Below, piece after piece: positions 1,423-36,798 of a stretch of DNA of 64,000 nucleotides (position 1 is the stretch's first letter; every line of letters begins with the position of its first letter). The DNA lies in the sequence record MH051917, one strand, 5' to 3'. Source of the stretch: Enterobacteria phage vB_EcoM_IME341. The notes below the pieces were generated by a model, which saw only the letters and a program-made list of their open reading frames with translations, did no database searches and was not told where the DNA came from. The translations under genes were made by a program, and so were the position numbers.

Positions 1423-1836
1423 ATGAAAGAAATCGCAGACGAATTTAGCTTTATCAAGTACGTCACCCTAGAACTCCAAGATGACGCCACCATAGCTCCA
1501 CTCACAGTACCAAATAAACAAAATGTCATATATGCTATAGCGGTTGATGATATACTAGTCTACATCGGGAAGACTAAAAATCTTCGTAAGCGCATCAACT
1601 ACTACCGAACCGCTATTAATCGTAAGGACCAAACGTCAGATTCGACTAAGTCCATTCTGATTCATGAAGCATTAATGGCAGGTAAAAAGGTAGAGTTCTA
1701 TGCACGGCAGTGCTTTAATCTGTCGATGACTAACGAACTTGGAACTATGTCAGTTGAGACCATGTCTCTTGAAGAGCCAATGTTCATAAAGAAATTTAAT
1801 CCACCTTGGAATACCCAACATAGGATAAAGCAATGA
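1423..1836 (+). CDS. denA: Endonuclease II (DenA), GIY-YIG family
   Basis: Translation from the second Met (MKEIADEFSFIKY...VIYAIAVDDILVYIGKTKNLRKRINYYRTAINRKD...) carries a GIY-x9-YIG motif and matches remembered T4 EndoII in sequence, size and position between nrdB and rnlA. The track start at 1399 would place the first codons in a GC hairpin. Confidence 0.8.
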   Translation: MKEIADEFSFIKYVTLELQDDATIAPLTVPNKQNVIYAIAVDDILVYIGKTKNLRKRINYYRTAINRKDQTSDSTKSILIHEALMAGKKVEFYARQCFNLSMTNELGTMSVETMSLEEPMFIKKFNPPWNTQHRIKQ

Positions 1837-2981
1837 TTGAATTATATGATAACTTGATGGCCCTGGTTAAAAACTCGACTAAATCTAAGTTCTTCTTTAA
1901 AGACTTTCAGAGTGCGCTAGGAGTCAACTATCGCATCTTTAGTTATAACTATGCATCGTACAGTGATTGGTTGGAAGACGGCGCCCTAGAGTGTCGAGGC
2001 ATTATGTTTGAAATGGACGAGAATGGTCCGGTACGTATTGCTGCTCGTCCTATGCAAAAGTTCTTTAACCTCGACGAAAACCCTATGACTATCGGTCTGG
2101 ACTTGTCGCCAGAAAATATCGACCTCGTAATGGCTAAGGAAGATGGTTCTCTGATTTCTACATTCATGGACCGACAGTATCTTTCTGTTAAATCTAAAGG
2201 CTCTATCCATTCGTCAATGGTGCACGATTCTTTACGTTTCCTTCGTCTCCCTGAGAACGAGGCTTTTGCCGCACGTCTAGAAGAAATCACCAAAGCCGGG
2301 TATACCTGCAACCTTGAATATGTCGCACCTACCAACCGTATCGTGCTGGCTTACCAAGAAACGAACCTCATCCTGTTAAACGTTCGTAATAATGAAACAG
2401 GTGAGTATATTCCATATGCTGAACTGTTTAAGGACGGCGCGCTGCGTAAGCATTTGGTTGAAAGTTATGACCTCACCGAAGGTGATTTCGTAGAAAACAT
2501 CCGTAAACAAGAGGGTATTGAAGGTTTTATCTTTGTACTGAAAGATGGTACGTTCTTTAAACTCAAAACTGCATGGTACAGTGCACTGCATCATACCAAA
2601 GATTCCATTAACAATAACGAACGTTTGTTTGAAGTTGTAGTGGCGGGTGGAACTGATGACCTTCGTGGTCTGTTCAGTACAGATTCGTTTGCTATCGAGA
2701 AAATCGATGCCTTCGAACGTATCCATTTAGATTACTTAGAACAATCATTGGCTTTGTTGGAAGCAGCTTACTCTCAACTCAAGGGCCGCGACCGTAAAGA
2801 CTACGCTGTTACTGGACAGCTAATCCTTAAGGACTTCCCAGGGTTGTTCTCTATTCTTATGCAGGCGTACGTAGGCGGTATTAATTATGATACGGTTGTA
2901 GACCAGATTAACTCTGTGTTCTTGAAAAACCATAAAGCCCAAATCCCTGAAAAATATTTGAAAGAAATTGCGGTAGAGTAG
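1833..2981 (+). CDS. rnlA: RNA ligase 1 (gene 63)
   Basis: 382 aa; strong similarity to T4 Rnl1 (e.g. YRIFSYNYASYSDWLEDGALECRGIMFEMDENGPVRIAARPMQKFFNL, KEDGSL lysine-adenylation motif, FVAPTNRIVLAYQE); ATGA overlap with the denA stop. Confidence 0.95.
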   Translation: MIELYDNLMALVKNSTKSKFFFKDFQSALGVNYRIFSYNYASYSDWLEDGALECRGIMFEMDENGPVRIAARPMQKFFNLDENPMTIGLDLSPENIDLVMAKEDGSLISTFMDRQYLSVKSKGSIHSSMVHDSLRFLRLPENEAFAARLEEITKAGYTCNLEYVAPTNRIVLAYQETNLILLNVRNNETGEYIPYAELFKDGALRKHLVESYDLTEGDFVENIRKQEGIEGFIFVLKDGTFFKLKTAWYSALHHTKDSINNNERLFEVVVAGGTDDLRGLFSTDSFAIEKIDAFERIHLDYLEQSLALLEAAYSQLKGRDRKDYAVTGQLILKDFPGLFSILMQAYVGGINYDTVVDQINSVFLKNHKAQIPEKYLKEIAVE

Positions 2982-3009
2982 TTTACATCTCCTCATGATG
3001 TGTTAGTAT
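2981..3009 (+). promoter_or_regulatory. Early (sigma70-type) promoter upstream of the Alc-sized ORF
   Basis: GTTTAC -35, 17-nt spacer, TAGTAT -10, followed by a CATGAGGAG leader. Confidence 0.5.
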
Positions 3010-3039
3010 AGACTTACCAACTAATGAGGAGAAAACAAA

Positions 3040-3540
3040 ATGAATATGCAAATGATTACTAACGAAATGGTTGTTAAGGCTTTTGGTGACTCTACTGACG
3101 GTATCCAAGTTTTTAAAGGTTCTCGTGCAGTAGGTTACCTGACCGATCTTCGTGTTACTTTAGCTAAAAATGCTAAAAAGAAAATCAAGCAAAAAGAATA
3201 CTCTACCCGTTATGCAGAAGAAAAGCGTGAAGCCATGCCTGAAGCTGTTAACTCTATGGTTGAGTTTCTCCAAAACAACCTTTCCAAGTACGATGCCGAG
3301 GTATTCATTAATATTAGCCAACCTAATGTTAAAATCTCAGGCATCACTTTCTATTTGATTTGTGACCCATTAAGCGACAAGTTTAATCGCCTTGGCATTT
3401 CAAGTCCTTACCATACCGCTGAAGAATTATGTTTTATGTTCGAAACGTACAAAATTCAGTGCGAAAATCCTAAAACGGTTCTTATTAATTCCCTGTCACG
3501 TGATGACATCATCGAGATTATTACCAAATGTCTAAATTAA
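3040..3540 (+). CDS. Hypothetical early protein; candidate Alc homologue by position and size only
   Basis: 166-aa ORF with GAGGAG Shine-Dalgarno immediately after rnlA; T4 has the 167-aa alc gene at this position. I cannot verify sequence similarity from memory. Confidence 0.5.
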   Translation: MNMQMITNEMVVKAFGDSTDGIQVFKGSRAVGYLTDLRVTLAKNAKKKIKQKEYSTRYAEEKREAMPEAVNSMVEFLQNNLSKYDAEVFINISQPNVKISGITFYLICDPLSDKFNRLGISSPYHTAEELCFMFETYKIQCENPKTVLINSLSRDDIIEIITKCLN

Positions 3541-3881
3541 GTATTTACCTTTTAGCTGGAGCCATTGCAGTAGGTGCTTACGGTTTTATTTCGTATCAAT
3601 CAAGTCGTATTGATACCCTTACTGAAGAACTGAAAACTACCCAGCAAACGGCCAAACAGAATGCCGAAGCCGTGGATGACCTACGTGGCCAATACTCGGA
3701 TATTGAATTCCGCACTACTGAAATGAATGCCCGATTGGATAAAATTAAGGTAGAAAATGAAAAGCTCCGTAAAGATTCGAAGAAGGCGCACGTGGTGGCA
3801 AGTAAGCCAGGACTGGTCGAAAAACAAATCAACAAGTCCTTCGATTCCTTTACAGAAGACTTCAGGAGCATTACAGAATGA
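3528..3881 (+). CDS. i-spanin (Rz-like, T4 PseT.3 equivalent)
   Basis: 117 aa; N-terminal transmembrane helix (LSIYLLAGAIAVGAYGFISY) followed by a charged coiled-coil periplasmic domain; immediately precedes a lipoprotein ORF. Confidence 0.75.
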   Translation: MSKLSIYLLAGAIAVGAYGFISYQSSRIDTLTEELKTTQQTAKQNAEAVDDLRGQYSDIEFRTTEMNARLDKIKVENEKLRKDSKKAHVVASKPGLVEKQINKSFDSFTEDFRSITE

Positions 3882-7325: not shown

Positions 7326-7561
7326 TGCTGAGCGAAAACCCTATTACTGTAGAGCAGTTCCACGTTAAAGTTAAAGAATTTGCTCAGGCCCTGATTAATA
7401 AGGTTTCTGTACGTTTTCCTGATGCAACTCTGCGAGTAATTCAGGAATCACCGCGTGCGGTATTGGTTATCGTTAATCCTAAAGACGGCGACCAGATTAC
7501 CCAATTGAAACTTGGTTCTGATGGTCTGGTCGAAGCACAGCGGGTTTATATTGATGCTTAA
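7325..7561 (+). CDS. Hypothetical protein
   Basis: 78-aa ORF; start overlaps the upstream stop (TAATG). Confidence 0.5.
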   Translation: MLSENPITVEQFHVKVKEFAQALINKVSVRFPDATLRVIQESPRAVLVIVNPKDGDQITQLKLGSDGLVEAQRVYIDA

Positions 7562-7892
7562 TTTAAAACTAGCAGTTAATGCCACCTTACAATCTGACGA
7601 AGACGGAGACCATCGAGGTCTCTCTGAAAAGGCTACTCAGTACATCAAAGACCTTTTTAAACTGAGTGAAGATTTCCAAAGCATCCATACTTCAACATAT
7701 GATGCTGTGCTGGCTACTGTTCTTCCGGTTGAAATTGGTGATCGAATTCCGGCGGCGGTATTTTTCGATAAACAAAAACGCTTCCCAGACGGTTATGGTA
7801 TATTAACCTCACGTGTGAAATCTATCACTAAACTTCGTACCGATTTATATCGTGTCGAAACCAATAATACAGCTTATCTAGTGGTGATGTAA
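7554..7892 (+). CDS. Hypothetical protein
   Basis: Internal ATG of track ORF 7512..7892 overlapping the upstream stop; about 112 aa; ends at the cd start. Confidence 0.45.
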   Translation: MLNLKLAVNATLQSDEDGDHRGLSEKATQYIKDLFKLSEDFQSIHTSTYDAVLATVLPVEIGDRIPAAVFFDKQKRFPDGYGILTSRVKSITKLRTDLYRVETNNTAYLVVM

Positions 7893-8437
7893 TGAAAGCA
7901 AGCACATACCTTCAGATTGCATATCTGATTTCTCAAGAATCAAAATGTTGTTCATGGAAAGTGGGTGCGGTTATCGAAAAGAATGGTCGCATTATCTCTA
8001 CAGGCTATAACGGTTCACCGTCTGGTGGTGTTAACTGTTGTGACCACGCTGTAGAACAGGACTGGACTCGTGTTGTGTATGACCCAGCTCGAATGTCGCA
8101 TAAATCCGTTCTTCTTAAAGAACACCGTATGGCTCACGCTGCATGGTCATCTAAAAATGAAATCCATGCTGAACTGAATGCTATTTTGTTTGCAGCTCGT
8201 ACCGGAAGTTCTATTGATGGCGCTACGATGTACGTGACGTTATCTCCGTGCGCTGATTGTGCTAAGTCTATTGCGCAGTCTGGAATTAAAACATTGGTTT
8301 ATGCTGAGCTCTATGACCGAAATCCTGAAGGTTGGGACGATATCCTCCGTGAATCAGGCATCGAAGTTATCCAGTATAATCGTACAGGGCTCCGTTCTTT
8401 GAACTGGGAATCAATTCAAAACTATTGTGGTGAATAA
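7892..8437 (+). CDS. cd: dCMP deaminase
   Basis: 181 aa, close match to T4 Cd: zinc-binding HAELNAI and SPCADCA motifs; N-terminal MKASTYLQIAYLISQESKCCSWKVGAVIEKNGRIISTGYNG. Confidence 0.95.
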   Translation: MKASTYLQIAYLISQESKCCSWKVGAVIEKNGRIISTGYNGSPSGGVNCCDHAVEQDWTRVVYDPARMSHKSVLLKEHRMAHAAWSSKNEIHAELNAILFAARTGSSIDGATMYVTLSPCADCAKSIAQSGIKTLVYAELYDRNPEGWDDILRESGIEVIQYNRTGLRSLNWESIQNYCGE

Positions 8438-32079: not shown

Positions 32080-32083
32080 TAAA

Positions 32084-32108
32084 GGGCCTTGCGGCCCTTA
32101 TTTAGTTT
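32084..32108 (+). terminator. Rho-independent terminator after hoc
   Basis: GGGCC-TTGC-GGCCC hairpin followed by TTATTTAGTTT; the same hairpin sequence recurs at 58281. Confidence 0.7.
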
Positions 32109-32161
32109 ATGATATTTTAGGAGATTAAGTTATTGACGAATAATTTTTAATAGGTGAATAT

Positions 32162-32341
32162 ATGAAATTTAACAAATATATATGGGTGTTGATTTTCTTT
32201 ATAGTGCTATTTTTGTTTTCGTTAATTTCATTAACTAGTGTGATGTTTGCTTCTATATTGGCTCTTTTCACCTGCATTAGTTCCTTTTTTGGGATAATAG
32301 CTACTATAGATAAAATTTTACGTACCAAAAAGGGCCCTTAG
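32162..32341 (+). CDS. Small membrane protein (59 aa, two predicted transmembrane segments), not in the ORF track
   Basis: AGGTGA Shine-Dalgarno before ATG; MKFNKYIWVLIFFIVLFLFSLISLTSVMFASILALFTCISSFFGIIATIDKILRTKKGP; flanked by GC hairpins on both sides. Confidence 0.45.
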   Translation: MKFNKYIWVLIFFIVLFLFSLISLTSVMFASILALFTCISSFFGIIATIDKILRTKKGP

Positions 32342-32346
32342 GCCCT
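32332..32346. other. GC hairpin after the small membrane-peptide ORF
   Basis: GGGCCC-TTA-GGCCC with an A-run on the 5' side; its orientation suggests termination of antisense transcription or a stability element. Confidence 0.4.
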
Positions 32347-32441
32347 TCCCTAAAAGCTTGCTTTATAATTCACGCCCATAACTTTGAGAAGAACCCAGCA
32401 TAGTGAGCCTAAGGTGCTACTTGTCCTACCATGAATCTCCT

Positions 32442-32472
32442 GTTTACAAGTTAAAATTCTCATGTTACTATT
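32442..32472 (+). promoter_or_regulatory. Early promoter-like element
   Basis: GTTTAC-N19-TACTAT upstream of ORF 32500. Confidence 0.5.
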
Positions 32473-32499
32473 GAATAGTCAAATCACAAGAGAATTGTT

Positions 32500-32712
32500 A
32501 TGGATAAGATTAAAGTACATTTTTTACATGAATCAGGTATGAATTTTATTGATATTGCTAAAAAGATTGGCGGAACTGCCAGAGATATGGCTAAAGCTTG
32601 GGCCGAAGTTGAGAATGCTAAGGCCAAGTTTAAAGCAAGAGAGAAAGTCGTATATCGTAAAAGATTAAACAACAAAAAGGTCAGCGCAAAGCGCGTTTTT
32701 GGTCCAAAGTAA
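32500..32712 (+). CDS. Small basic protein with a possible helix-turn-helix
   Basis: 70 aa; early-type promoter upstream (GTTTAC at about 32442); the segment GMNFIDIAKKIGGTARDMAKAW has an HTH-like pattern; lysine/arginine-rich C-terminus. Confidence 0.5.
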   Translation: MDKIKVHFLHESGMNFIDIAKKIGGTARDMAKAWAEVENAKAKFKAREKVVYRKRLNNKKVSAKRVFGPK

Positions 32713-32826
32713 TATGCTTTAAATTTAGGTGTGTTATAATGGGTCTAGGTCCTTCCGTTAAACCATTTGGCTTGGTGACAGAAGAATACTAGCTCTTCTA
32801 TTTAATTATATTTATTATGGTGATTT

Positions 32827-33195
32827 ATGCCGCTTCTTAAAAAGAGAAATGGTGCCACCCGTCAGGTCTTCCTGACGAAACGATACGCCATCAAAATACC
32901 CAGTTTCTATAGTTGGAAATTGTTTTTAACTGGATTATGTTGTAATATAACAGAACATGAGTTTACATCTTTGAATGACTCGTATTTGTGCCCTGTTATA
33001 TGGAAATCTTGGTTAGGACTCGTTATAGTTATGCCAAGAGCTAAAGAAGTTACTAATATCGGGTTGTGGAAAACAGAAATACACCATGCTAGGCACCACA
33101 CTCTGGTAGAAAGCCTGTATATGTCTGATTGCAAGCCTTCAAATTATGGTTACCTTAAAGGTAAATTGGTTAAAATTGATTATGGAAGCAAATAA
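32827..33195 (+). CDS. Hypothetical protein with protein-kinase-like motifs (truncated kinase-like fold)
   Basis: 122 aa; YAIK (beta-3 lysine-like), DCKPSN (catalytic-loop-like D-x-K-P-x-N) and KIDYG (DFG-like) in kinase order; stop abuts the rnlB start. Confidence 0.5.
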
Positions 33196-33196
33196 T

Positions 33197-34204
33197 ATGT
33201 TCAAGAAATATAGCAGTCTCGAAAACCATTACAACAGTAAGTTTATCGAAAAACTCCGTACTAATGGTTTGACTGGTGGTGAATGGGTAGCACGTGAGAA
33301 GATTCATGGGACCAACTTTAGTTTAATCATAGAACGTGACGCAGTCACATGCGCCAAGCGCACTGGCCCTATCCTCCCTGCTGAAGATTTCTATGGCTAT
33401 GAAATTGTACTCAAGAACTATGCTGATTCTATTAAATCTGTTCAACATCTAATTGAATCGATTAATTACCAGTCGTACCAGATTTATGGTGAATTCGCTG
33501 GGCCAGGTATCCAGAAGAATGTGGACTACGGTGATAAAGACTTTTATGTGTTCGATATCCGAGTTACTAAGGAAGATGGTTCAGAATCTGTTCTAACCGA
33601 TACATTGATGGAAGCCTTCTGTATTATCCATAAGTTTAAGGTAGCTCCATGTCTGGCTACAGGTAGCTTTGAAGACCTTATTAAATTACCTAATGACTTT
33701 GATTCAGTTATTCCTGATTATAATTTTGCGGTGGATAACGCTGGCCTAACTATTGCAAACTCGACAGACTTTATTCCTAAGGTAGAAGGTAAAGTATTCA
33801 CGGCTGAAGGCTTTGTACTTAAACCTGATATTCCTACCTGGCTTCCAAACGGAAATCGTGTAGCGATTAAATGTAAGAACTCTAAATTCAGCGAGAAGAA
33901 AAAGTCTGATAAGCCTATTAAGGCTGCGGTAGTTTTATCCCAAGATGATATGGATTTGCTGTGGCAATTCACTGATTATGTGACAGTTAACCGTATCAAT
34001 AACGTTATTAGTAAGATTGGCGAAGTATCACCTAAAGATTTTGGAAAGGTAATGGGCTTGACGGTCCAAGATATCCTTGAAGAAGCTGCCCGTGAAGAAT
34101 TGGAATTAACTGACGCTGAAAATCCTGTTGAAGTTAAAAAGCAGCTCATTGAGTGCGTAAAAGAAACATTAAGACATGTTTGGATTGAACTAGTATCCAA
34201 ATAA
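33197..34204 (+). CDS. rnlB: RNA ligase 2 (RnlB)
   Basis: From the internal Met [20 protein letters not shown]...: near-identical to T4 Rnl2 ([15 protein letters not shown] lysine-adenylation motif, [23 protein letters not shown]). Confidence 0.95.
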
Positions 34205-34212
34205 ATGATAAA

Positions 34213-34235
34213 GGGACCGTAAGGTCCCTTTTTTT
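34213..34235. terminator. Bidirectional terminator between convergent rnlB and the gene 24 paralogue
   Basis: GGGACC-GTAA-GGTCCC hairpin flanked by an A-run and TTTTTTT. Confidence 0.8.
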
Positions 34236-35517
34236 AGTTTTTATCCAATGGAGGAAGTTTAACACCAAGATAAGAACTCAATTGACTTTGATTAGCCATT
34301 TTGTCCATATCCGCACCGTCAATAATACGAGCTTCTTTGTCGTCTTTAGCGACGGTATAAGGATTCGCAGTCAATGCATACCGAGCCAATAAAGATATGG
34401 TAGGTTGCAATGAATCTGGGTCTACAATAACCTTGAATTCACCTACTGAAGTATCACCTTCATCATCAACTTCTTCGAGCCCTTCCGTATAAGGCGCATA
34501 ATACAAAGATGCGACCGTCTGCCCTTCACCCATCTGAGCATTTACACCGACAATAACATAATCACACGGACTATTCATATCAGCATAAAGTGGTAGACCG
34601 TTCTTTAATATGCCATAAGCTAATTCGTCTTGGTCTTCTTTTTTCTCAACCCAACCGGATGCAGCTAAAATAGCGGCGCAACGAGAAGAAGCTACTGCAT
34701 AAGTACCTGCAAACGAAGTCTGGCGTTGAACAGCAGAATTCATTTCACACATATAGTAATACAAGGTACGCGCTCGGTCTTGGGCGTTATCATATTGTGG
34801 GTCTGTTAAGTTCAAGACGCCTTTCTCGGAAACTCCTTGGACTTTAAAACGAGAACTTACCGTAATTAAGGACTGTAATACGTCTTTATTAATTTCTTCG
34901 GCCATTTGAATAGCCAAAATATTGTCTATAAAGTCTGGTGCATTAAACCCGTTGGATTCTAAATCCTGGGCCAGTTCTACAGTCAAAGAAGTTTTAAGTT
35001 TACGCGATTTAACTTCAGTCTGCCACTTATCAATACGGAATCCTGCTTCAGCAATCTCAGGATGGCCTTTTTCAAATTTATTGGTAAAGGCTGCATCAGA
35101 CATCATACGAATATGGCCTGCTGCAATAGCTTCTGAAATAACTTCACCCAAATCGGTTTCAGTTGTTCCTGCAAACGGAGAAGCTTCTAATACCTTGAAA
35201 ACCACACTTTCGAATTGGAACATATCACCAACAGCATATGCTTCGTCTTTATCGGTGAATTCAGGAATGTTTTTACGTTCGAACATACCAATTTCGCCTG
35301 CAAAAGTGGCTCCGCCGAGATAAGTCATTTTATCGTCTGGGTTTAAAACACGGACACCATATAATGCTGCAACAGGTTGAGTAGTTTTTTGTTCAGCAAC
35401 AAGGGCTTTAAAAATTCTTTTATTAGTTGCCTGGGTATATGAAAGAAGATTAGGACGGGCGACCTGGTTGGCCGCCGTCAAAGTTGATTCTTGTATTAAT
35501 GCATTAATCTTTTTCAT
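34234..35517 (-). CDS. Capsid vertex protein paralogue (gp24-like, second copy)
   Basis: 427 aa; roughly 50% identical by eye to the adjacent gp24 (e.g. ...RPNL...AT.K.I....AEQ.T.QP.AALYGV..L.PD...); starts one codon after the gp24 stop (TAAATG). Confidence 0.85.
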   Translation of the reverse strand: MKKINALIQESTLTAANQVARPNLLSYTQATNKRIFKALVAEQKTTQPVAALYGVRVLNPDDKMTYLGGATFAGEIGMFERKNIPEFTDKDEAYAVGDMFQFESVVFKVLEASPFAGTTETDLGEVISEAIAAGHIRMMSDAAFTNKFEKGHPEIAEAGFRIDKWQTEVKSRKLKTSLTVELAQDLESNGFNAPDFIDNILAIQMAEEINKDVLQSLITVSSRFKVQGVSEKGVLNLTDPQYDNAQDRARTLYYYMCEMNSAVQRQTSFAGTYAVASSRCAAILAASGWVEKKEDQDELAYGILKNGLPLYADMNSPCDYVIVGVNAQMGEGQTVASLYYAPYTEGLEEVDDEGDTSVGEFKVIVDPDSLQPTISLLARYALTANPYTVAKDDKEARIIDGADMDKMANQSQLSSYLGVKLPPLDKN

Positions 35518-36798
35518 TTATGCCTCGTAAATAATTGGAGGAAGTTTAACACCAAGCAGATAAGACATATTACTCTGCCCTGCCATTAAATCCATATTAG
35601 TTGCGTCTATAACACGAGCTTCTTTATCATCTTTAGCAACGGTATACGGGTTTGCTGAAAGTGCATAACGAACCATCAGAGAAATAGCCGGTTGCAAACT
35701 ATCAGGGTCTACAATAACTTTATAGGCACCAACATGTTCTTGGTCGTCTAAATCCAGACCTTCGGTATACGGAGCATAGAAAATAGAACCAACTACTTCA
35801 TTACCGCCGTAATCTTCTTTAACGCCTACGATAACATAATCTAAAGGACTATTAACATCACAGAATACAGGCAATCCATTAATCAAATAACCGTAAGCAG
35901 TTTCTGGGAGCCAAGCTTCATCTTCTGGTTTATGTTTCAACCAACCTGAACCTGCAAGCATTGCGGCTACACGACTAGATGCGACAACAAACGTACCTGA
36001 ATAAGAAGTGGTTTTCTGAATTTCAGAATTCATCTCACAAACCATTTCATATAATTTACGTGCACTTTCTGGAGCGGAATTATAGGACAAATCAATAATA
36101 CCGTTATCAGATACACCAGTTACTTTGTAACGTTTAGATACGGTAATCAAGGATTGTAATACGTCTTTATTGATTTCATCAGCCATTACAGTGGCTAAAA
36201 GGTCTTCTAAGAACGCAGGGGCGTCGAAGCCATTAGATTCCATGTCTTGGGCTAGTTCTACAGTCAAAGCGGTTTTAAGCTTACGGGACTTAACAGGGGC
36301 GTTCCATTTATTAACCTGGAATACTGCATTGCTAATTTCAACATCACCTGCTTCGAATTTTTCTGTGTGGGCCGCATCAGGAACAAGACGACAAGTTAAT
36401 GACACCAAACCTTCTTGAAGGGCATCAGCCAATTCTGTAGCGCTAGTGGATGCGAGTGGGCTTGCTTGAAGAGCCTTATAAACCACATTCTGATACTTGA
36501 AATATTCACCCTCGGCAATCGCCTGGGCCTTATCTGTGAGTTCCGGGATAGTTTCACGGTCTTTAGAACCAACTTCACCGCCATAAACGGCACCAGTTTG
36601 GAAGCTGAATTCATTATCAGGGGTAAGATATTTGACACCATACAATGCAGCAATAGGCTGGCTAGTACGTTGTTCAGCAATAATATCACGGTAAATCAAT
36701 TTGGTTGTAGCACGGGTCAAAGCAACAAGATTAGGGCGACCCAATGAGTTGCTAGAAGTAGTTGTTGACTCGCGCAGTAATTCGTTAATCTTTGCCAT
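35518..36798 (-). CDS. 24: Capsid vertex protein gp24
   Basis: 426 aa; near-identical to T4 gp24 (MAKINELLRESTTT.SNS.GRPNLVALTRATTKLIY.DI.A.QRT.QP...); late promoter TATAAATA about 29 nt upstream. Confidence 0.95.
   Translation of the reverse strand: MAKINELLRESTTTSSNSLGRPNLVALTRATTKLIYRDIIAEQRTSQPIAALYGVKYLTPDNEFSFQTGAVYGGEVGSKDRETIPELTDKAQAIAEGEYFKYQNVVYKALQASPLASTSATELADALQEGLVSLTCRLVPDAAHTEKFEAGDVEISNAVFQVNKWNAPVKSRKLKTALTVELAQDMESNGFDAPAFLEDLLATVMADEINKDVLQSLITVSKRYKVTGVSDNGIIDLSYNSAPESARKLYEMVCEMNSEIQKTTSYSGTFVVASSRVAAMLAGSGWLKHKPEDEAWLPETAYGYLINGLPVFCDVNSPLDYVIVGVKEDYGGNEVVGSIFYAPYTEGLDLDDQEHVGAYKVIVDPDSLQPAISLMVRYALSANPYTVAKDDKEARVIDATNMDLMAGQSNMSYLLGVKLPPIIYEA

Follow-up and report, generated by a model that had tools for sequence, protein, structure and literature searches.

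A 122-residue gene next to rnlB in phage vB_EcoM_IME341 belongs to a large family of minimal protein-kinase-like proteins that end at the DFG-like motif

What is encoded by the small gene that lies immediately upstream of rnlB, the RNA ligase 2 gene, in Enterobacteria phage vB_EcoM_IME341? The 64,000-nucleotide stretch of this genome that we analysed (sequence record MH051917; hereafter the window) comes from a Dhakavirus-type T4-like phage whose nearest record is phage JS10, and an open reading frame (ORF) of 122 amino acids occupies positions 32827..33195 of its plus strand. The original prediction, made from the letters of the sequence, had picked out of the translation three motifs, YAIK, DCKPSN and KIDYG, which follow one another in the order of their protein kinase counterparts, and had noted that the chain ends right after the last, DFG-like one; these positions proved exact, and the protein does stop two residues past the glycine of that motif. 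We argue here that the gene probably encodes a minimal protein of the protein-kinase-like superfamily that stands alone, is made up of Hanks subdomains I-VII only and is predicted to be a kinase whose substrate is most likely a protein. The ORF is a real protein-coding gene under selection. It begins with ATG, is preceded by a GGTGA Shine-Dalgarno sequence at 32819-32823 and stops with TAA at 33193-33195. Its JS10 orthologue, 'hypothetical protein EpJS10_0174', is 93% identical in amino acid sequence and sits in an identical gene order (inh-hoc-...-24.3-ORF-rnlB, facing two gene 24 paralogues). Nonsynonymous divergence between the two (dN 0.028) is a small fraction of synonymous divergence (dS 0.41), and the resulting dN/dS of 0.068 shows strong purifying selection; all eight substitutions fall outside the kinase-like motifs.

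Is so short a protein a piece of a kinase, or a whole protein of its own kind? A profile made from eight first-round relatives (111-137 amino acids) was run against 1.84 billion cluster representatives, and found 1,402 of them at E ≤ 1e-3 and 869 at E ≤ 1e-10, nearly all 110-140 amino acids long (median 123). The median family member has three residues after the DFG-like aspartate (the window protein has four). Because 92% of the 279 full-length matches stop no more than five residues from the profile end, the short form is, judged by these sequences, a fixed minimal architecture and not a truncation. Thus, where the original prediction spoke of a 'minimal or truncated' kinase-like fold, 'minimal' stands, being supported by the fold model, the profile alignment and the family, and 'truncated' falls, since members are normally this short. 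A handful of relatives reach 163-267 amino acids, and their extensions are not homologous to each other. In Kosakonia phage Kc263 a 267-amino-acid 'serine/threonine-protein kinase PknA' (1941-2744 of its locus) runs about 125 residues past the DFG-like motif, and this extension overlaps, in another frame, an ORF (2452-2919) that is homologous to the gene following the kinase-like gene in Erwinia phage AH04 (E 2e-12); so long a form in Kc263 may have arisen through an error of annotation or sequencing.

Members of the family carry no Pfam domain and nearly all are named 'hypothetical protein'; a few distant ones, from phages Kc263, AH04, pEa_SNUABM_5 and (in UniProt) RP12, are automatically labelled as Ser/Thr kinases. 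PHROG 4301 ('unknown function') matches the window protein (E 3.6e-39, residues 5-121 on positions 41-168 of the 225 in the profile). A hidden Markov model search, proposed earlier as a check, detects no kinase when ordinary profiles are used: Pfam and NCBIfam give no match for the window protein, for a profile of 125 sequences or for those 125 members taken singly; the curated kinase models (Pfam Pkinase, RIO1, APH, Kdo and ABC1, and those of NCBIfam) give no significant match to the window protein or the 125 members; and sequence searches of the Protein Data Bank (PDB) with the window protein and the 125-sequence profile return noise and no kinase. Sub-threshold matches to the catalytic loops of ABC1 and PknB come from distant members only. 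It is structure and profile-profile comparison alone that detect the relationship. We found no description of this minimal family in the literature covered, which did not include subscription journals.

That the motifs mean what they seem to mean is indicated by conservation, counted in an alignment of 284 family members (denominators vary by position; all of the following elements lie on the plus strand). The lysine of Y-A-I-K (residues 20-23, strand β3, 32884..32895) is invariant (K23, 283/283), and the profile comparison program hhalign sets it on the lysine of the kinase A-x-K motif, so that it would correspond to the ATP-phosphate-binding K72 of PKA. E43 (32953..32955), placed in a predicted helix spanning residues 30-47 and aligned to the αC glutamate E91 of PKA, is kept in 283 of 284 members; one helical turn before it, N40 is present in all 284 and is an invariant peculiar to this family. 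The catalytic loop D101-C-K103-P-S-N106 (33127..33144) aligns with the kinase RDLKPEN, which makes its three numbered residues the likely equivalents of PKA D166, K168 and N171, and it directly precedes the strands at 107-110 and 113-116. An acidic residue occupies position 101 in all members but one, a Lys (E 150, D 130, K 1), only Ser (147) and Asn (134) occur at position 106, and K103 is kept in 250/281. Ser, in place of His-Gly, comes just before D101. The residues at 101 and 106 covary (E...S in 144, D...N in 128, mixed in 8), which on the alignment ties the two together in function and defines two active-site flavours. K-I-D-Y-G comprises residues 116-120 (33172-33186), and within it D118-Y-G (33178..33186) aligns with the Mg-binding DFG, D118 falling on PKA D184; D118 is found in 280/280, Y119 in 274/280 and G120 in 255/277. 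The spacing also matches that of Hanks-type kinases, with 20 residues from the lysine to the glutamate and 17 from the first aspartate to the second. A glycine-rich GxGxxG loop was looked for, and G9 alone is conserved of its glycines: the corresponding region, between β1 and β2, reads G-x-T-R-x-V (G9 282/283, T11 254/283, R12 283/283, V14 273/283), and from its position we take G9-A-T11-R12-Q-V14 (32851..32868) to be a putative variant P-loop. Since K23, E43 and D118 are essentially invariant, position 101 is acidic and position 106 is always Asn or Ser, the kinase-like motifs are, by the evidence of the alignment, not chance. All of the residues that kinases use for ATP·Mg and γ-phosphate transfer (K23, E43, D/E101, K103, N/S106 and D118) have aligned, conserved counterparts in the family.

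Structure prediction, the other computational check suggested at the outset, gives a kinase-like fold. The AlphaFold2 model made from the 125-sequence alignment has a predicted local distance difference test (pLDDT) score of 94.4 and a predicted template modelling (pTM) score of 0.86. Its elements are β strands at 5-8, 12-16 and 20-25, the helix at 30-47, a strand at about 54-60, a β strand at 67-70, helices at 78-89 and 95-98, and β strands at 107-110 and 113-116, and their order, β-β-β-αC-β-β-helix-helix-β-β, is that of a kinase N-lobe, hinge, αE, catalytic loop and β7-β8. The model thus shows a compact two-lobed domain of about 120 residues, with a predicted five-stranded N-lobe plus αC, hinge, αE-like helix, catalytic loop, β7-β8 and DFG-like motif, after which the chain stops. 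Foldseek against the PDB places TTK/Mps1 at the top (E 5e-5 and below); against BFVD it finds phage homologues and then protein kinases of giant viruses and herpesviruses. The smallest structural neighbours are ArkI, Bud32 and Rio. An hhalign comparison of the family with six eukaryotic-type kinases (P 0.005, 102 columns) puts K23, E43, D101, K103, N106 and D118 in register with PKA K72, E91, D166, K168, N171 and D184, so the motif spacing is compatible with an ATP-binding N-lobe followed by catalytic and Mg loops; CDK2 alone, set against the family, already aligns through the catalytic loop and DFG. Hanks subdomains I-VII are therefore represented in this register, and subdomains VIII-XI (the activation segment with APE, αF and the substrate lobe) are absent across the family.

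How do these proteins compare with kinases already known? With the Hanks-type Ser/Thr kinases PknB, PKA and TTK they share the N-lobe topology, the β3 lysine, the αC glutamate, D-x-K-x-x-N, β7-β8, D-[FY]-G and the spacing; they differ in being less than half the size, in lacking VIII-XI, in the G-x-T-R-x-V P-loop with its invariant arginine, in the invariant αC asparagine, in having no His-Arg before the catalytic aspartate and in falling below the Pfam kinase thresholds. To our knowledge the accepted minimal kinase core extends to αF and some of the C-lobe, and among characterised kinases the smallest have about 170-200 residues. The type III effectors OspG, NleH and HopBF1 (about 170-200 amino acids) keep αF and C-terminal helices, are 50-80 residues longer and have no sequence relationship to the family. 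RIO1/RIO2, Bud32 and ArkI (about 170-260 amino acids) keep C-lobe helices and none is known to be phage-borne, whereas the family stops after subdomain VII. The catalytic loop of Rio and Bud32 is H-G-D-x-x-x-x-N, without a lysine. ArkI, an archaeal tRNA 2'-kinase and one of the smallest kinase folds to have been characterised, retains subdomains IX and XI, with HGQ in its catalytic loop (PMC9095486), and its metal loop is DFE where the family has D-Y-G. The phage T7 kinase gp0.7 (T7K) is an early kinase-fold enzyme of host takeover and counter-defence that disarms bacterial defences (PMC13645617). A functional analogy with it is plausible, but T7K has 359 amino acids, a DPV motif and a C-terminal DNA-binding/shut-off domain that the family lacks, and we rejected kinship with it (hhalign E 0.77, a spurious match of 16 columns). 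The fold is a known one; what is new is a very large protein-kinase-like family whose architecture ends at subdomain VII.

Several points weigh against reading these proteins as protein kinases. We know of no active kinase that lacks αF and everything after DFG, so that an active enzyme cut this short would have no precedent. The sequence-profile libraries give no significant kinase match; the hhalign P value is modest, and the six kinase template sequences used for it were entered by hand, which limits the comparison. The P-loop with its single glycine and invariant R12 is unlike GxGxxG and may mean another ligand or another chemistry, half of the family has E...S rather than D...N, and the nearest structural relatives of very small size, Bud32, Rio and ArkI, have RNA rather than protein as their target or work as ATPases. 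One alternative is a nucleotide-binding or ATPase module that is no transferase. It might switch with ATP, inhibit some host protein or sequester nucleotides, and would need the kinase cleft for nothing but binding or hydrolysis, in the manner of Bud32 and Rio. The substrate-binding lobe is wholly absent, the conserved residues are exactly those for ATP·Mg binding, and the nearest small relatives, Rio and Bud32, work mainly as ATPases. However, an acidic residue is kept at the catalytic-base position in 280 of 281 members and the catalytic-loop lysine in 250 of 281, more than binding alone needs, and pure sponges usually lose their catalytic residues; we regard such a module as unlikely, although it is the alternative that we take most seriously.

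Two other explanations are essentially excluded by the family data. That the gene has decayed from a full-length kinase, of which the 5' half was left when rnlB or neighbouring DNA was rearranged, might be suggested by the stop right after DFG and by the few relatives of 163-267 amino acids, but the common end point of the full-length matches, the low dN/dS, the confident and compact model, the lack of homology among the longer extensions and the overlap of the Kc263 extension with a conserved ORF in a different frame leave this reading a negligible probability. That the motifs are coincidental, in another ATP-binding α/β fold (SAICAR-synthetase or ATP-grasp-like) or in a protein that binds no nucleotide, would sit well with the lack of Pfam and PDB sequence matches; since all six catalytic residues of eukaryotic protein kinases are in register and conserved, we consider it highly improbable. 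A split kinase, whose C-lobe would be encoded downstream, was also considered and rejected, for no relationship links the ORFs that follow the gene in phages G4507, 121Q, phi G17, Skure, 4L372D and AH04, and no neighbour recurs in the wider sample of loci described next.

Does the company that the gene keeps say what it does? We compared 82 loci from phage records, metagenomes and IMG/VR, which form 67 independent groups when copies more than 85% identical are merged. In an all-against-all BLAST of the ORFs within 6 kb, no family occurs in more than three of the 67 groups, except the gene itself and an antisense ORF inside it. The gene is present in only 100 of 50,697 isolated phage records. 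In phage T4 the slot between 24.3 and rnlB holds the unrelated gene 24.2, whose product is also small and has no known function (92 amino acids, no kinase motifs; homology was rejected at a BLASTP E of 6), and T4 has no homologue at either of the loci examined, the rnlB slot and the tRNA (transfer RNA) genes; the earlier remark that this is not a described T4 function therefore agrees with what we find. Compared with T4, Tequatrovirus G4507 carries the gene as an insertion between trna.3 and trna.2; in 121Q-like jumbo phages, N4-like phage phi G17, Seuratvirus Skure, Felixounavirus SWJM-02 and Aeromonas phage 4L372D its neighbours are small, unrelated ORFs. The G4507 and phi G17 proteins (2989-3369 and 2989-3351 of their loci) are 72% identical even though the two phages are unrelated, which argues for recent horizontal exchange of a single-gene cassette. 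This is a mobile, stand-alone accessory gene, confined to phages and without a fixed neighbour. One phage contig (IMGVR_UViG_3300020050_004169) has two tandem overlapping copies of the minimal kinase-like gene, at 7356-7718 and 7708-8094, and in translated searches (tblastn) the genomes of Aeromonas phages PS1 and PS2 and of Shewanella phage SXP01 each match at two sites.

The position next to rnlB raises the further possibility of an RNA-directed kinase that works with RnlB in the repair or protection of RNA or tRNA, for example as an ArkI-like tRNA 2'-kinase or a kinase that heals 5'-OH ends, to which the ligase gene would be coupled in translation. In both the window and JS10 rnlB follows the gene directly; on a metagenomic phage contig a homologue with 38% identity (L018) lies just downstream of Rnl1-like and Rnl2-like ligases, and at a third locus a fragment lies 7 kb from an Rnl2-like gene. 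Arrays of tRNA genes are found within 10 kb of it in six groups. In two of these, L014 (4928-5339) and L050 (10001-10428), it lies in dispersed tRNA arrays on contigs of 543 kb and 188 kb; a tRNA-Asn gene ends 2 nucleotides before its start in one, and a tRNA-Pro gene starts 6 nucleotides past its stop in the other. The smallest structural neighbours are RNA-associated, and the protein is basic (isoelectric point 9.6 for the window protein, family median 8.9). Against this, an RNA ligase lies within 10 kb at just two or three of about 68 loci (the window, L018 and the fragment), so that a conserved association with ligase or end-healing genes was rejected; many host phages of 40-90 kb have no RNA-repair genes in the flanks of the gene; in loci with tRNA genes it shows no excess proximity to them over the other ORFs (mean rank 0.48, P 0.40); the isoelectric points of the family run from 4.9 to 10.7; and the D-x-K-x-x-N loop is like that of protein Ser/Thr kinases, not like that of ArkI (HGQ...K; PMC9095486) or of Rio and Bud32. 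We think an RNA-directed kinase quite unlikely, and the link to RNA is a lead and not a finding. The pairing of the gene with rnlB is local to Dhakavirus and perhaps one or two other loci, and a functional link to RnlB is not supported.

The junction itself is as tight as had been described: between the stop codon and the rnlB ATG (33197-33199) there is a single nucleotide (33196), and the same junction is annotated in JS10. The rnlB gene (33197..34204, plus strand) encodes a 335-amino-acid RNA ligase 2, the start of whose product we take to be that of T4 Rnl2, and a GGAAG sequence at 33184-33188 (plus strand), within the upstream ORF, is Shine-Dalgarno-like. Translational coupling of the two genes is plausible. 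Thus the coupling proposed originally stands as a matter of arrangement, and a tie to RnlB function does not. Upstream, a candidate T4-type middle promoter was recognised by eye at 32713..32740 (plus strand); it has a MotA-box-like element, taTGCTTtA, at 32713-32721 (TGCTTTA at 32715-32721), a 13-nucleotide spacer and an extended -10 element, TGtTATAAT, at 32732-32740, all of which resembles what we take to be the T4 middle-promoter consensus. It is identical in JS10, and a sigma-70 scan passes it over for want of a -35 element. The 146 nucleotides from 32690 to 32835, which comprise the 3' end of 24.3, the intergenic region (114 nucleotides, most of the stretch) and the first ORF codons, are 97% identical to JS10, in contrast to the diverged synonymous sites of the ORF (dS 0.41); for 24.3 itself a crude, ungapped comparison gives 71% identity between genes of different length (213 and 210 nucleotides). 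This conserved 5' leader shows no significant RNA structure (z +0.79) and no Rfam match. Downstream of rnlB is a bidirectional terminator-like hairpin (34210..34231; a 9-bp stem with 5 G-C pairs and T-runs on both strands). Because promoter-like elements lie upstream of the ORF and this terminator lies past rnlB, the two genes are probably one early/middle transcription unit that the hairpin closes. A sub-threshold Rfam match of this terminator between rnlB and gene 24b to the MicX small RNA (34159-34244; 29.6 bits; gathering score 75) is almost certainly merely the hairpin.

Two features of the surrounding region also differ among these phages. Tandem gp24 head vertex protein paralogues of 427 and 426 amino acids are encoded on the minus strand at 34234-35517 and 35518-36798; they abut, converge on rnlB and match 24a/24b of JS10, where T4 has a single gene 24. 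On the other side, JS10 has between hoc and 24.3 two minus-strand genes (a second 'hoc' and a 'tail fiber-like protein' gene) that are absent from the window (32080-32500, compared with 1726-3605 of the JS10 locus), and the window has in their place an ORF for a very hydrophobic protein of 59 amino acids (32162-32341, plus strand), with terminator-like hairpins on either side at 32082-32099 and 32334-32357. The region 32080-32500, which adjoins the kinase-like gene, is an indel hot spot.

How might a protein kinase of this size work? We envisage that ATP·Mg would be bound between the lobes through the K23-E43 pair, the G9-x-T-R12 loop, N106 and D118, and that the acidic D101 would activate a hydroxyl, which would then receive the γ-phosphate. 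A loop of the form D-x-K-x-x-N marks Ser/Thr protein kinases and is unlike those of small-molecule or RIO/Bud32-type kinases, and for that reason the substrate is most likely a protein, of the host or of the phage. The missing C-lobe leaves an open face, which suggests that the enzyme, having no peptide-binding platform, may be promiscuous or may depend on a partner or substrate that completes the C-lobe, as with OspG or HopBF1. Whether proteins of about 120 residues are catalytically competent alone, as a widespread and hitherto unnoticed class of phage effectors that phosphorylate host proteins or tRNA/RNA so as to subvert defences or seize the cell, is a question on which we lean slightly to the negative while treating competence as a real possibility. 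Expression would probably be early or middle, from the MotA-type promoter and as one unit with rnlB, the tight junction with which would reflect the compact gene packing of T4-type phages and not a shared pathway. With T7K (PMC13645617) as a model, we see host takeover or counter-defence as its probable role.

This family spans T4-like, N4-like, FelixO1-like, Seuratvirus and jumbo phages, and includes a protein (bas45_0262) of phage Bas45 from the BASEL collection. It gives a structural label to a piece of phage 'dark matter' (PHROG 4301, which has no Pfam family), and it adds to the phages a second kinase-fold family, unrelated to the T7K type. If active, its members would be about the smallest kinases known, and if they are competent alone, Hanks subdomains I-VII suffice for phosphotransfer; so small a scaffold may be of use in engineering. 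Few enzymes have been studied as thoroughly as protein kinases. More than 1,400 clusters that stop after DFG, with their ATP, Mg and catalytic residues under strong selection, would, if this is true, redefine the minimal requirements of the protein kinase fold.
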